Shown: positions 1,538 through 19,197 of the stretch, in pieces
Position numbering within the stretch: the stretch's first letter is position 1
How the letters are laid out: every line of letters begins with the position of its first letter
Sequence record: MN850588.1
Direction: 5' to 3' (one strand)
Length of the DNA: 38,200 bases
Origin: Escherichia phage sortregn
Made by a program: the position numbers and the translations under genes
Notes under the pieces: generated by a model
What the model saw: only the letters and a program-made list of their open reading frames with translations
Told to the model about the DNA's origin: nothing
The model's database searches: none

Positions 1538-3580
1538 TTAAAAACCCTCATTCATGAATACTTTGTTAGTGATAACGTCTTTACCCTTGCCGATCTTCCG
1601 GTGGGTAACTTTCAGTGGGGCCATGAAGTACGGCGCGAAGGCGAGGACCTCCTGGGGCGTCCGTAGCTTCTTGATGTCGGCCCGTTTCTTTCCGTCCAGT
1701 ACGTGCTTAAGGATCCCATTGTGGAGCCATTCCTTTTTCGCCTGTGGGCTATCGCTACCGGGCCAGAATACTTGCCACGCCACGAACTGATCGCCGTCCT
1801 TCTCCAACTCGTACCGGAAGGCGATCCCCCCAGTCCCTCGCGCCAATTCCAGACGGAAGCCCCTCACGTTGTAGTAGTCGTCCCTGCTGTACGTGGTCCG
1901 GCTTAAGTTCTTGTTCGGATCTACGAGCGAGTTCCCGCAGCAGCGGCAGATCCTGGCTACGATGTCGTTTTGTGCGCCGCATCCCTTCTGTACCACCTTC
2001 CGCCCGCTGGAGTCCTTCCAGTCGTCGCAGGTGATGAACTGGAAAAAGTGTTCGCAGCGTTCGCCAGTGTCGGGATCGACGTAGCGGCAGCGTCGGGCGT
2101 GTTTGCCGTTTAGCGTCGGGTGGCCCGCCTTGCGACACTTCGGACAGTCTAACTCTAATTCTCCTTTGCTCTCGTCTGCGCTGTGCTGGTATGCCTCCAG
2201 CAGCGGGGAGAAATACAGGGATCCGAGTTCGTCAAGCGTCCCGGCATAGTCGAGGACCAGGTGATCCTCCTTCGTCACCCCGGCGGCGATGTGGAACGGC
2301 TTAAGGATGCGCATACCACGGCCTAAAAGCTGGGTTAGGAGCGTGAGGGATCCGATCTTCCGCAGTATCACGGACGTGTCCCAGAACGGGACGTTAACGC
2401 CAGTCGTTAGGGCGTTAACCTGGAATATAAATTTGATCTCCCCGGTATTGGCGCGGCGCAAAATGTCCATGCGCTTCTTGCCCGTCGTGTCGTCCGTGAT
2501 GATGGCGTAAGGCGTACCAGGGGGAAGGGCCTCCGCCGCCTGTTTGCAGTGTCTCACGCCCGCACACGTCACTAACACGCCGTTCCTGTGCTGGGCGATG
2601 GCGTATACCTCCGCCATGATCTCATGCGTGAGCTTTTTGTCCTTAAGGATCGCCTTTTGCATGGCGTCCATTTCGGCGTCCGTGAACTCCTTAATGCCAT
2701 CCTCGCCGGACGATCGCCACTGGTCGAGGTTGTAGTGGAGATTGGAGATCCCGAAGTGAGTCGGAACAACCGCGCCGACGCTTACCAGGTATTCCGTCGA
2801 GATCTCGCATACCTTCTTACGCCAAAATCCGGGCTGTTCGAGGTCTGGCTGGATGATGGACTCCACGCCACGGTATGGCGTCCCGGTGTAGCCAATAATG
2901 CGGAGTTCCTTCCCGTAGACCTCGCGGGCGCGTTGCTGGAATGTGCGGATAATGATCGTATAGCTGGAGCGACCCGCCTCGATCATCTCCTCGTAAGTCT
3001 CGCCCTTGTGCTCGCCGATAATGGTCGGCTCGTCGAAGCCGTCCAGGATGATCTCCCCGGTTTTCTCGTCCCGCAGGTACTCCGGGACCACGCGCTCCTG
3101 TGAGCGGATCAGGTCCTCAATGTTGACGTGATGGCATTCATCGATCAGCAGGAACAGCGGCGCGTAATGGGCGAGTGCCTGACCTGGGCGGAGTCCTCCG
3201 ATCACTGTACCCTCGGAGCCGACCACGATCGGGAAGTGTGCAGACTTGCGGCCCAGGCTGGCGCAGTAGATCGAGGAGTTCACGCCGAAGTTTTTCAACT
3301 CCTCGAAGTCCTGATCGATGATCTCCCCCTGGCGGGACAGGATCATGGCAGGGAAACCCATATCCCTGATCCGGCGGGCCAGCATGGAGATCATGATGGT
3401 TTTACCCGCACTCACGGCGGCGTCCACAATGACCGGGCCAGGATAGCGACGGATGGCCTCCGCGCAAGCCTCATACGCGACGAACTGGTGATCGTATGGT
3501 GTAACGGGCATATCTCCCAGGGCGCGGAGAATCGCGTCCCGGTCGAGCGCTTCGATCTGTTTCTCCAATGTCATTAACAT
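1538..3580 (-). CDS. SF2 DEAH-box DNA helicase with C-terminal zinc-ribbon region
   Basis: 680 aa ORF; Walker A AAVSAGKT, motif II LLIDECHH, motif III YTGTP, motif VI QLLGRGMR; cysteine clusters CPKCRK, CRCCG. Confidence 0.8.
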   Translation of the reverse strand: MLMTLEKQIEALDRDAILRALGDMPVTPYDHQFVAYEACAEAIRRYPGPVIVDAAVSAGKTIMISMLARRIRDMGFPAMILSRQGEIIDQDFEELKNFGVNSSIYCASLGRKSAHFPIVVGSEGTVIGGLRPGQALAHYAPLFLLIDECHHVNIEDLIRSQERVVPEYLRDEKTGEIILDGFDEPTIIGEHKGETYEEMIEAGRSSYTIIIRTFQQRAREVYGKELRIIGYTGTPYRGVESIIQPDLEQPGFWRKKVCEISTEYLVSVGAVVPTHFGISNLHYNLDQWRSSGEDGIKEFTDAEMDAMQKAILKDKKLTHEIMAEVYAIAQHRNGVLVTCAGVRHCKQAAEALPPGTPYAIITDDTTGKKRMDILRRANTGEIKFIFQVNALTTGVNVPFWDTSVILRKIGSLTLLTQLLGRGMRILKPFHIAAGVTKEDHLVLDYAGTLDELGSLYFSPLLEAYQHSADESKGELELDCPKCRKAGHPTLNGKHARRCRYVDPDTGERCEHFFQFITCDDWKDSSGRKVVQKGCGAQNDIVARICRCCGNSLVDPNKNLSRTTYSRDDYYNVRGFRLELARGTGGIAFRYELEKDGDQFVAWQVFWPGSDSPQAKKEWLHNGILKHVLDGKKRADIKKLRTPQEVLAFAPYFMAPLKVTHRKIGKGKDVITNKVFMNEGF
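1823..1833 (-). repeat. CTGGGGGGATC 11-mer copy (sense strand of helicase gene)
   Basis: Exact match read on minus strand; frame-checked against helicase residues T583-G-G-I586. Confidence 0.85.
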
Positions 3581-15619: not shown

Positions 15620-16258
15620 ATGTCAATATTCACTTTCATTAATCGCAAACTGGGCCGTTTCAAGACGTGCCGGACCTGCAAGGATAAGCACCCTTGCGGC
15701 TTCGGGGAATGGCCTTCGATGTTCTTCATGTGCGACAAGTGCCAGAACAAGACGCTGGAGGAGCTATTCGAACCGGGACGCCTTAACCGCCTGACGATGG
15801 TCCACCAGACGGAGGAACAGATGGCAGAGTCCCGCCGCCGTCTGGGGCCGTTGATCGACAGCCTGGTGAGCCAGCAGCGCCAGAGCAAACAAACCGCAGC
15901 CCAGACCCAGGCAGCGAAGGCCGCGCAGTATCGCGACCCGCGATCGGTGGCAATGGCCCGCCAGATGGCGCACGACCCACGCCCGGCGGCTCGTGGTACG
16001 CAGCAGGATCCGATCTCGGACCCGATGCACCTCCTCAACCCGTTAAACCCGCTCTCCCCAGTGTCTCCGCTCAACCCGCTGAACGACTGGGACGACAGCA
16101 GCCACCGCCACCACGTCGCGCCAGCCATGAGCGAGCCGACGGAATGCCACACCACCAGCCACTCCTCCGGCTATGAGTCCAGCAGCAGCGACTACAGCAG
16201 CAGCAGCTACGACAGCGGGAGCGACTCCTCCAGCTACTCGTCCGGGGGCTGTGACTGA
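15620..16258 (+). CDS. zinc-ribbon protein with Pro/Leu repeats and Ser/Tyr/Asp-rich C-terminal tail
   Basis: CRTCKDK...CDKCQNK four-cysteine ribbon; LNPLNPLSPVSPLNPLN; tail SSSSDYSSSSYDSGSDSSSYSS encoded by short AGC repeats. Confidence 0.55.
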   Translation: MSIFTFINRKLGRFKTCRTCKDKHPCGFGEWPSMFFMCDKCQNKTLEELFEPGRLNRLTMVHQTEEQMAESRRRLGPLIDSLVSQQRQSKQTAAQTQAAKAAQYRDPRSVAMARQMAHDPRPAARGTQQDPISDPMHLLNPLNPLSPVSPLNPLNDWDDSSHRHHVAPAMSEPTECHTTSHSSGYESSSSDYSSSSYDSGSDSSSYSSGGCD

Positions 16259-16554
16259 TGGCGATGGACAAGGACCGCAGGGTGGGCCGCACGAAGGCGG
16301 AAGCGCAACTCCTGAAACTCAAGCTGTACAAGGGGCCGGAGTGCAAGGTCCACGGCGGGAACTTCACCCGGTACACGTCAAACGGCGCTTGTGTGCTGTG
16401 CCGTAAGCTGGAGGCCGACACGACGAAGGGCAAGAGCCGGGGCTATATCGCCAAGAAGCGCGACACGCTGGCGTTTAATCACCCGGTTTCACCCTGGCCC
16501 ATAACCGCCGAGAATATGCACCTGTGCCCGGATCTCTCGTTCAAGCGAACTTGA
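16258..16554 (+). CDS. zinc-ribbon protein
   Basis: 98 aa; CKVHGG...CVLCRK four-cysteine motif; ATG overlaps previous stop. Confidence 0.5.
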   Translation: MAMDKDRRVGRTKAEAQLLKLKLYKGPECKVHGGNFTRYTSNGACVLCRKLEADTTKGKSRGYIAKKRDTLAFNHPVSPWPITAENMHLCPDLSFKRT

Positions 16555-16630
16555 TCACGCTTCCGTAACCGCCGATAATCCTCCGCGTAACCCTGTGACA
16601 CTCAGGCGATAAACGGAGGATTTTTTCATC
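16501..16630 (+). promoter_or_regulatory. candidate late-operon control region upstream of terS
   Basis: Direct repeat ATAACCGCCGAGAAT (16501) / GTAACCGCCGATAAT (16565), third CGTAACCC at 16586, GATAAT hexamer 16574-79. Confidence 0.35.
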
Positions 16631-17185
16631 ATGGCAAACGAACAGAACCTTAAGAAGGGGAACCGCTTCTCCAAAGAGAACCAGCCGGAGCGACGCGGCA
16701 GGGCGAAGCAGAACCGGACGTTACTCCTCGAAGCACTCCGCAAGGTTCGGATCAAGGAGGCCACCGGGCGCAAGGTCGAGGACATCGATCCAAACACTGG
16801 CGAGGTGAAGGTGAACAGCGAAACGGGCGAGCCGATCATGGTGGACGAGTTCGTGGAGGTCCCGCTCACGGAGGACATGTTCATCCAGCGAGCGATCCAG
16901 ATGGCCCTCGTAGACGGTTCCATGATGCGCGACATCATGAGCCGATTAATCCCCTACACCAAGCCGACCAGCCCGACCTATTGCTTTGAACTGACCGGAT
17001 CCACCCCGTCCGAGCGTATCACCGAGATCGAGGACCTGGTGGCAGCGGGAGAGCTTCCGTTCGACGCGGCGGAGTCTATGGTGAAGATGATCCGCCACGG
17101 CGCGGAAGTGTTCGAAATGTCCGAAATGGTCAAACGACTGGACGCACTGGAGGCCCGACTGAATGGCGAAGCCAAAGACGAATAA
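16631..17185 (+). CDS. terminase small subunit (P22 gp3-like)
   Basis: N-terminal KKGNRF motif as in P22 gp3; GGAGGA SD; upstream of TerL. Confidence 0.55.
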   Translation: MANEQNLKKGNRFSKENQPERRGRAKQNRTLLLEALRKVRIKEATGRKVEDIDPNTGEVKVNSETGEPIMVDEFVEVPLTEDMFIQRAIQMALVDGSMMRDIMSRLIPYTKPTSPTYCFELTGSTPSERITEIEDLVAAGELPFDAAESMVKMIRHGAEVFEMSEMVKRLDALEARLNGEAKDE

Positions 17186-17597
17186 ACTCCCGCCGGACAC
17201 TTACGGCAGACTGGAGGCGCTGGGCCTGAAATGGTTCACCGCCTCCCCTTACCCTTATTTCATCGTGTGCTTTGACCCGCAGGACGAGGAGATGGTGGCG
17301 AAGCTGGGCGAATGCTTCCCGGACTGGAACCGCGAGAAGCCGATCCAGCAAGGCGTCGCCATTGAGTACCACGCCGCCGACGTTAAGCTGGTGTTCGTAG
17401 GCGTCCGCCGGGGCCAATACTGGCGGACGACCATCGTCCACGAGATCGTCCACGTTAAGAACTACATCGGCGACACGCTGGGGATCGAGTGGGACGTGAA
17501 CAACGACGAGCCGGAGGCTTACTTCGTGGGCTGGCTGTTTAACATGATGGAGCAAACCTTCCAGGATCTGGGCTATGGCAAAAAATCGAAAGGATAA
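17163..17597 (+). CDS. hypothetical protein with HExxH motif (possible zincin-like)
   Basis: 144 aa ORF between TerS and TerL; HEIVH followed by acidic EPEAYF. Confidence 0.45.
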   Translation: MAKPKTNKLPPDTYGRLEALGLKWFTASPYPYFIVCFDPQDEEMVAKLGECFPDWNREKPIQQGVAIEYHAADVKLVFVGVRRGQYWRTTIVHEIVHVKNYIGDTLGIEWDVNNDEPEAYFVGWLFNMMEQTFQDLGYGKKSKG

Positions 17598-19197
17598 CCT
17601 CGCACGACTGGCCCGACTGGAGGGCCGGGCGTCTTACGTGGCCCGCGATGGTGGCCTGGTGTATGGCGTTTATGAGCCGGACGGGACCAGCGCCAAGCAC
17701 TGCTACAACATGAAGAAGGTTAACGGCGAATGGGTGTACACCTCCGAGCCGCACGACATCACGATCGCGGAGTGTCTGACCCCGATCCTCCTCCGTCCGA
17801 AGCGCTTTATTATCCTGGTCGGCGGGCGTGGCTCCGGGAAGTCGCTCACCGTCGGCGGGATCATCGACGCAGACGCCCACGACGAGGCGGCGAGCGCGAT
17901 GTGTCTCCGCGAATACCAGGCATCGATCAAGGATTCAGTCCACCCGCTCCTCGTCAACCGGATCGAGGAGTACGGTCTGGACGGCTTCGAGATCCTGGAG
18001 AAGGAGATCCGCCACACCAACGGCGCGATCATCCGTTTTAAGGGGATGGCGAGGGACCCAGCGGGCGTAAAATCCGCGTTCGGCTTCCGTCGCTTCTGGG
18101 GCGAGGAGGCGCAGACCTTTTCCGCCGAGTCTCTCCGCCAGTTAACGCCAACGATGCGCGAAACGGGCGGTATTATGCTGTTCACGGCGAACCCCGGCTC
18201 CAGTGAGGACGCATTCAGTCAGAGATTCCTGATCCCATTCTGGGAGGATCTCCAGCGGGACGGCATCTACGAGGACGATCTCCACCTGATAATCCGCGTC
18301 AACTGGTCGGATAACCCCTGGTTCCCCCCAGAGCTTCGATCGGAGATGGAGTTCGACCGCCAGACGCTTTCAAAGGCGCTATTCGATCACGTATGGGAAG
18401 GCCATTTTAATGACAGTGTGCCGGATGCCATTATCCCGGCGGAATGGTTCGACGCGGCGATCGACGCCCACAAGAAACTCGGATTCAAGCCGACCGGGAT
18501 CAGGATCGGCGCACTCGACCCGGCGGACGTCGGGGCGGATAACAAGGCTTACGGCGAGCGTTACGGCTCCGTGGTCACGCATATGGAGGAATGGTTCGAA
18601 GGTGACGCGAACGACTCCGTAGACAAGGCGATCAACACGGCGAAGGACCACGGGATCGAGGCGTTCGTGTGGGACCGCGCCGGACTGGGCGCTGGCTTGC
18701 GCCGCCAGGTCACGGAGGCTTACGCCGGGACGAAGGTCCTCGTAGACGGTTACAACGCCGGGGACGGCGTGAAGCACCCTGACAACCCTGTGGAGCTTGA
18801 TCACTGGCTGAACAACAAGGCCAGCGGGAACAATATCCAGAAGAACGCCGACGCGTTCGCGAACCGTGGCTCCCAGGACATCTACCTGTTACGGAAGCGC
18901 TTCGAAAGGACTTACGAGGCCGTGGTGAAGGGCGTATATCACAACCCGGACGAACTGATCGCGCTGGACAGCGAGGGGATCGGGGAGCATATGACCAAAC
19001 TCAGGGCGGAAGTGTGCCGTATTCCGCGCATTTACAACACCAACGGGAAATTTGCTAGGATGCCTAAGCCGCAGATGCGGACCAAACTCAAAATGAAGTC
19101 GCCGGGGATGGCTGACGTGCTTTGCATGTTGATGCAGCCGCCGGAGACGGTGAAAGACGAAGATTATTCCGGCTATAATGTGCCGAGCAACCGCTAA
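17575..19197 (+). CDS. terminase large subunit
   Basis: 540 aa; Walker A ILVGGRGSGKS, acidic nuclease-type C-terminal half; precedes portal. Confidence 0.85.
   Translation: MAKNRKDNLARLARLEGRASYVARDGGLVYGVYEPDGTSAKHCYNMKKVNGEWVYTSEPHDITIAECLTPILLRPKRFIILVGGRGSGKSLTVGGIIDADAHDEAASAMCLREYQASIKDSVHPLLVNRIEEYGLDGFEILEKEIRHTNGAIIRFKGMARDPAGVKSAFGFRRFWGEEAQTFSAESLRQLTPTMRETGGIMLFTANPGSSEDAFSQRFLIPFWEDLQRDGIYEDDLHLIIRVNWSDNPWFPPELRSEMEFDRQTLSKALFDHVWEGHFNDSVPDAIIPAEWFDAAIDAHKKLGFKPTGIRIGALDPADVGADNKAYGERYGSVVTHMEEWFEGDANDSVDKAINTAKDHGIEAFVWDRAGLGAGLRRQVTEAYAGTKVLVDGYNAGDGVKHPDNPVELDHWLNNKASGNNIQKNADAFANRGSQDIYLLRKRFERTYEAVVKGVYHNPDELIALDSEGIGEHMTKLRAEVCRIPRIYNTNGKFARMPKPQMRTKLKMKSPGMADVLCMLMQPPETVKDEDYSGYNVPSNR

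Follow-up and report, generated by a model that had tools for sequence, protein, structure and literature searches.

Gluzincins, the peptidases of MEROPS clan MA(E), need not be large: stand-alone enzymes of about 100 residues exist, the minigluzincins (such as proabylysin, PDB 4JIU), and some proteins with an HExxH motif and a zincin fold are not proteases. By definition, the active-site helix of gluzincins contains HExxH and their glutamate helix (E,H)xx(A,F,T,S,G) (definition quoted in PMC7213743). In the zincin core, a small sheet flanked by a helix comes first, then the HExxH helix and last the Glu helix (Iyer et al. 2017, PMC5512222). In phages, zincin-like peptidases are already known as a class, and small HExxH proteins are common there, either as uncharacterised hypothetical proteins or under the label SprT-like. 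According to PMC5512222, polyvalent proteins of phages have zincin domains that become packaged or undergo processing around encapsidation. In ArdC, an acidic residue before the ligand glutamate orients a ligand histidine, and the exchange E229A of the metal-ligand glutamate itself left the known biological function unaffected, with no protease substrate found (González-Montes et al. 2020, PMC7213743).

Here I describe a small HExxH gene in the terminase region of Escherichia phage sortregn. The window is the whole stretch analysed, the 38,200 nucleotides of record MN850588.1; sortregn is a Murrayvirus with a GC content of about 59% (PMC7552041). Its sequence is 99% identical to that of Salmonella phage Lumpael over the shared part and 87-90% identical to those of the Murrayvirus phages ST231, IME_EC2, sortsyn and KMB41. 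Relatives measure 41-42.5 kb against the 38,200 bp of sortregn, so that the sortregn record may be incomplete.

The gene starts with ATG, encodes 144 amino acids (17163..17597, + strand) and lies between a 184-aa ORF (16631..17185, +) and the gene for the large terminase subunit TerL (17575..19197, +; PBSX or Terminase_3 type, Pfam PF04466, E=1.5e-31; phrog_2). It overlaps each of them by 23 nt (17163..17185 and 17575..17597, both +), which bears out the overlap with both neighbours that a sequence-only reading of this DNA had claimed. At the first overlap, translation of the upstream ORF and of the HExxH gene is probably coupled; a ribosome-binding site GGAGG (17149..17153, +), as read from the sequence, is found 9 nt 5' of the HExxH-gene ATG and within the end of the upstream ORF. 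Both overlaps start with ATGGC(G/A)AA, and the HExxH protein and TerL both begin with M-A-K; the alike junctions are possibly a shared coupling signal, or a coincidence. The only intergenic gap 5' of the 184-aa ORF contains a weak sigma-70-like promoter match, TTGATC-17-GATAAT (16551..16579, +; 9 of 12 positions in a consensus scan), and a scan of the + strand from 16631 to 19197 found no terminator-like sites. Downstream of TerL follow, in this order, a P22_portal gene (Pfam, E=5e-158) and a P22 coat gene (E=6e-71), and the head module of sortregn is thus P22-like. Heads of the P22 type use a scaffold and mature without a protease.

The same reading had placed the gene between the small and the large terminase genes, which is correct for the large subunit by its Terminase_3 match, whereas for the small one it is a positional label. 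The 184-aa ORF (phrog_9747, function unknown) stands at the TerS position, immediately 5' of TerL in a P22-like TerS-TerL-portal-scaffold-coat layout, and presumably occupies the slot of P22 gene 3; IME279, Skarpretter and the metagenomic phage L014 have homologues at the equivalent place (65%, 43% and 25% identity, respectively). Searches against Pfam, PHROGs, NCBIfam, PDB sequences (with a profile as well) and 5.8 billion proteins returned no match to a terminase family, and none of the names given to its homologues by the sources is TerS. The name small terminase therefore rests on position only, and the ORF is a putative TerS. In KMB41 the homologue (L025 1669-2223) is annotated as DNA gyrase subunit A, a name for which I found no support.

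The codons for H93-E94-I95-V96-H97 (17439..17453, +) include those of two predicted metal ligands, H93 and H97, and of the putative catalytic base E94, and those for N114-D115-E116-P117-E118-A119-Y120 (17502..17522, +) comprise, by the alignment, the predicted third metal ligand E116 and the ExxA motif of a glutamate helix. In an alignment of 149 homologues, which apart from the dozen closest relatives are 18-35% identical to the sortregn protein, H93, E94, H97 and E116 are invariant (149/149), while N114 is conserved in 147, D115 in 144, A119 in 141 (the eight exceptions being mainly T or C) and Y120 in 148 of the sequences. Between residues 93 and 135 the alignment contains neither an insertion nor a gap, and His or Cys stays below 30% in every column except those of the two histidines in the HExxH. 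E116 is located exactly 18 residues past H97 and 23 past H93, resulting in HExxH-x18-E, which together with the ExxA fits the gluzincin definition. It had been noted from the sequence that HEIVH is followed about 25 residues later by an acidic E-P-E segment (codons of D115-E116-P117-E118 at 17505-17516) with a zincin-like spacing; the motif, the first glutamate of that segment and the spacing withstood the comparison with the homologues, but the second glutamate, E118, did not, as it varies between E and Q. With typical amino-acid frequencies I estimate that about 0.005 HExxH motifs would be expected by chance in 144 residues, but what decides the matter is the conservation. The invariance of E94, the presumed general base, argues for catalysis over a purely structural metal site.

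A structure predicted with AF2 from alignment A2 (pLDDT 90.4, pTM 0.83) shows the element order b23-26, b32-37, a42-51, b64-70, b75-81, a87-106 and a116-135. The HExxH is situated in the first of the two long helices, 87-106 (pLDDT about 96-98 in this region), and the second, 116-135, has E116 in its first turn. This predicted topology matches the zincin core of PMC5512222, in line with the zincin fold suspected from the motif; a model from the single sequence was poor (pLDDT 51) and was set aside for the alignment-based one. Foldseek of the model against the PDB returned no significant match, the similarity to solved zincins being weak, and among the many confident neighbours in the viral structure library BFVD nearly all are uncharacterised, with a few labelled SprT-like, Metalloprotease or PolyVal metallopeptidase. 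Motif and model together make it probable that the protein is a zincin-fold, gluzincin-type metallohydrolase.

The sequence libraries give this family no name. The 144-aa protein alone matches nothing in Pfam, NCBIfam, PADLOC or the PDB sequences, and the family consensus has no useful match in Pfam or PADLOC; the protein belongs to PHROG 1365 (E=1.4e-19), of unknown function. An exhaustive phmmer search yielded 180 representatives at 50% clustering, nearly all of 95-170 aa, and true members range from 57 to 197 aa. The long matches (1181-2898 aa) lack HExxH, being PAS-repeat histidine kinases or proline-rich repeat proteins, and were discarded as spurious; no fusion partners were found in the longer family members. 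In 5.8 billion proteins, a profile search retrieved solely hypothetical proteins without a Pfam domain, on contigs of phage-like size, and tblastn with the family consensus detected the gene in 146 phage records, including Flavobacterium, Salmonella, Klebsiella, Escherichia, Serratia, Erwinia jumbo, Bacteroides and crAss-like phages. The family appears restricted to phages. The sortregn protein has no Pfam match, but family members do have weak ones, and when all 149 aligned members are compared with Pfam the best-populated families belong to the zincin clan (SprT-like with 17 members, best E=5e-4; DUF5700 with 9; M91 with 5; astacin, M78 and DUF6782 with 2 each), the rest being scattered over unrelated families with 1-3 members each. 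The profile of alignment A2 found one marginal match among the PDB sequences, to a peptidyl-Lys metalloendopeptidase (E=0.92), which ends at the HExxH of that protein. In the literature, searched for the family, for its PHROG number and for phage minigluzincins and SprT-like anti-defence proteins, no characterisation was found.

Compared with the described systems, the family shares with gluzincins and minigluzincins the HExxH helix, the ExxA glutamate helix, the x18 spacing and a predicted beta-alpha-beta-beta unit before both helices, and with minigluzincins also the small size (about 110-145 aa in the family) and the lack of an accessory domain. It differs from gluzincins in its missing matches to Pfam, NCBIfam and PDB sequences, in a signature of its own, N-D-E-P-x-A-Y, and in its apparent restriction to phages. 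With the MPTase domain of polyvalent proteins and the C-terminal domain of ArdC (PMC5512222, PMC7213743) it has in common the residence on mobile elements, the HExxH with a ligand on the Glu helix, an association with late or virion genes in some phages, and an acidic residue directly before the ligand glutamate (D115-E116 here, E228-E229 in ArdC); one BFVD neighbour is labelled PolyVal metallopeptidase. However, its members are always small and stand-alone, with no ArdC-N or other partner domain, and MPTase-PolyVal is absent from the Pfam families matched by the 149 members. I therefore rejected a polyvalent-protein domain, as members of 57-197 aa without extra domains do not fit it. The likeness to SprT-like, Spartan and Wss1 proteins (PF10263) consists of the weak profile matches in 17 of the 149 members, whereas the third ligand is Glu instead of His, a zinc-binding subdomain or DNA-binding region is missing, and the proteins are mostly acidic (median pI 5.6). 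Membership in SprT was rejected on these grounds, together with the lack of conserved Cys and a probability of 2% in hhalign against E. coli SprT (YggI). HNH endonucleases encoded beside the terminase in phages of the HK97 type are likewise products of a small extra gene in or next to the terminase operon, but their fold and motif are unrelated; here a beta-beta-alpha-metal finger is missing, as are conserved Cys or His residues outside the HExxH. A prohead maturation protease was rejected as well, because the head is P22-like and the gene is located upstream of TerL and not between portal and coat.

The order of upstream ORF, HExxH gene and TerL is kept in Murrayvirus (ST231, KMB41), in Sortsnevirus (Sortsne, IME279), in Skarpretter and in L014, and overlapping junctions are also present in ST231, IME279, Skarpretter and L014. 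The latter, with lysis genes upstream, is distant, with identities to sortregn of 49% for TerL, 32% for the HExxH protein and 25% for the upstream ORF. Some other members are close to packaging genes too: in Proteus phage V3 just upstream of TerS, in the crAss-like cr116_1 overlapping a gene annotated TerS, in L026 at 0.9 kb upstream of an Sf6-type TerS and TerL, and in L027 (3243-5565) with an SPP1-type portal gene on one side and, on the other, an overlapping 578-aa gene without Pfam match, where SPP1-like phages have their minor head (MuF-like) proteins. Elsewhere the contexts are different. In T4-like phages the gene is found in the nrdC-to-gene-55 region, while in one Jersey-like phage of Salmonella it has DNA polymerase I on one side and an endonuclease and helicase on the other. 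In a Drulisvirus it stands directly before the DNA polymerase gene, whose start it overlaps, and in Flavobacterium phages after a DNA methylase; further members stand beside primase-like genes or after Rz, past the lysis genes. In two larger metagenomic phages (L029 2593-3827; L028 3501-6144) an Acb3-family gene is two genes off and a Tad2-like gene four genes off, respectively. Acb3 and Tad2 are known anti-defence families that act on immune nucleotide signals, as enzymes or as sponges. A peptidase-like gene in a packaging module had seemed unexpected from the sequence, which needs toning down: within this lineage the placement is kept, but across the family many other contexts occur, from which I conclude that the gene product is probably no packaging component.

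The non-overlapping part of the HExxH gene shows dN/dS values of 0.16-0.24 (Nei-Gojobori), indicating purifying selection, and in all related phage records examined the orthologue is annotated as a CDS with a hypothetical product. It is a genuine, conserved phage gene. An antisense ORF of 141 aa (17130-17555, -) within it is most likely an artefact of the GC-rich DNA, the conserved frame being that on the + strand. Despite this constraint the protein changes fast: compared with sortregn, IME279 shows 85% identity for TerL and 65% for the upstream ORF but only 30% for the HExxH protein, and in Skarpretter the respective values are 65%, 43% and 27%, with the catalytic residues unchanged throughout this divergence of alleles. 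The synonymous divergence is out of step with that of the flanking genes, being higher in KMB41 (dS 0.73 vs. 0.37-0.39) and lower in Sortsne (0.56 vs. 0.74-0.88), which suggests that alleles are exchanged by recombination at this slot. In Lumpael (MK125141, about 3000-3142) 266 nt are missing that correspond to sortregn 17172-17437, i.e. residues 4-92, with a CCA microhomology at the junction, and through the gap the upstream ORF runs on into a tail read out of frame, which makes a fused 216-aa ORF annotated as putative recombinase. As this junction is only about 140 nt from the start of the record it may be an assembly artefact; if the deletion is real, the HExxH gene is dispensable.

A constrained catalytic core on a fast-changing scaffold, together with mobility of the gene between contexts, is what marks an accessory effector, and I therefore favour a metalloprotease with a host or defence protein as its target. 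In this explanation, to which I would give about an even chance, the protein is a minimal stand-alone gluzincin-type enzyme outside the core packaging motor, with a substrate that would most plausibly be a host or host-defence protein. H93, H97 and E116 would hold a divalent metal, usually zinc, and E94 would activate the metal-bound water. By analogy with E228 of ArdC, D115 probably orients a ligand histidine, and Y120, one helical turn past E116, may stabilise the transition state. The protein target would be recognised by the fast-diverging, non-catalytic surface. Co-transcribed with the terminase genes, and with its translation probably coupled, the enzyme would be made late in infection. 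Against an effector it counts that the three-gene block with its overlaps stays together down to 49% TerL identity while other members also adjoin terminase genes, and known anti-defence genes occur in only 2 of about 20 contexts.

The persistence of the block could reflect a protease that is linked to packaging, either working with the terminase, by processing TerS, TerL or the portal or by stripping proteins that block the DNA, or being loaded into the capsid and injected. The three-gene order with its overlapping stop and start codons, preserved from Murrayvirus and Sortsnevirus to Skarpretter and L014, favours this, as do the members beside terminase genes (V3, cr116_1, L026), the one just past an SPP1-type portal, and the polyvalent-protein zincin domains that are packaged or processed around encapsidation (PMC5512222). 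I nevertheless consider it rather unlikely, since most members reside in replication, nucleotide-metabolism or small-ORF regions a long way from terminase genes, and alleles turn over much faster than the terminase subunits, a pace uncommon among the subunits of conserved machines. The acidic family also has no DNA-binding module, P22-like heads, as is established for P22, need no protease, and in Lumpael, if its record is correct, most of the gene is missing. A more specific proposal has a slim chance of being correct: in this podophage lineage, whose heads are P22-like, the terminase would have the zincin as a third functional partner, made in a fixed ratio with TerS and TerL by coupled translation. 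The zincin would then either clear host proteins (e.g. defence nucleases or nucleoid proteins) from the DNA that enters the capsid, or be packaged and injected, so that a defence protein is cut as soon as the next infection begins; if true, this would be the first case of a protease with a functional tie to the terminase operon of a phage.

Alternatively, the protein could be a zincin-fold hydrolase with a non-protein substrate, such as a small molecule or a nucleotide signal, or a metal protein that only binds, e.g. a stoichiometric inhibitor of a host factor. ArdC, which kept its known function with E229A and yielded no protease substrate (PMC7213743), could be a precedent; the two members close to genes against immune nucleotide signals (Acb3, Tad2-like) point the same way, and so does the very small size of the protein, with little room for a substrate cleft. 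However, the full peptidase set H, E, H, E is invariant and accompanied by a conserved Tyr, the best-populated remote matches are to peptidase families, and small size does not preclude proteolysis, as the stand-alone peptidases of about 100 residues demonstrate; I find this alternative unlikely. For a DNA-dependent protease of the SprT, Spartan or Wss1 type, which would remove DNA-protein crosslinks from phage DNA, one could cite that SprT-like is the Pfam family matched by most members (17/149, best E=5e-4), that one BFVD neighbour is labelled SprT-like, and that among the contexts are many DNA-transaction modules (polymerase, helicase, primase, methylase, terminase). With Glu as third ligand, no conserved His or Cys outside the HExxH, neither zinc ribbon nor DNA-binding domain, a median pI of 5.6, 2% in hhalign against E. 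coli SprT/YggI and no Pfam match of the sortregn protein, this is very improbable. That the HExxH arose by chance in a non-enzymatic protein, or that the ORF is spurious, might be argued from the many long spurious ORFs in the GC-rich sortregn sequence, among them the antisense one of 141 aa inside the gene, and from the poor single-sequence model, but it is effectively refuted by a motif present in 149 of 149 homologues, the low dN/dS (0.16-0.24), the 180 cluster representatives and the CDS annotation in all related records.

What is new here is the family itself, deep, with a complete gluzincin signature and without a name in any curated library, together with its conserved embedding in the terminase operon of one lineage and its effector-like evolution. 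The family comprises at least 180 clusters at 50% identity and occurs in 146 sequenced phages, from coliphages to crAss-like, Flavobacterium and jumbo phages. As a minimal stand-alone candidate protease with a fast-evolving surface, and with some members near anti-defence genes, it is a reasonable candidate for an effector of host takeover or counter-defence, and the sortregn lineage infects E. coli K-12 and Salmonella. For curators, putative zinc metallopeptidase would be a usable annotation, and the mislabels putative recombinase and DNA gyrase subunit A in related records are corrected. Upstream of the three-gene block, two conserved ORFs (15620-16258 and 16258-16554) without Pfam match contain cysteine motifs: one shows CxxC...CxxC followed by a long tail rich in Ser, Tyr and Asp, and the other CxxH...CxxC.
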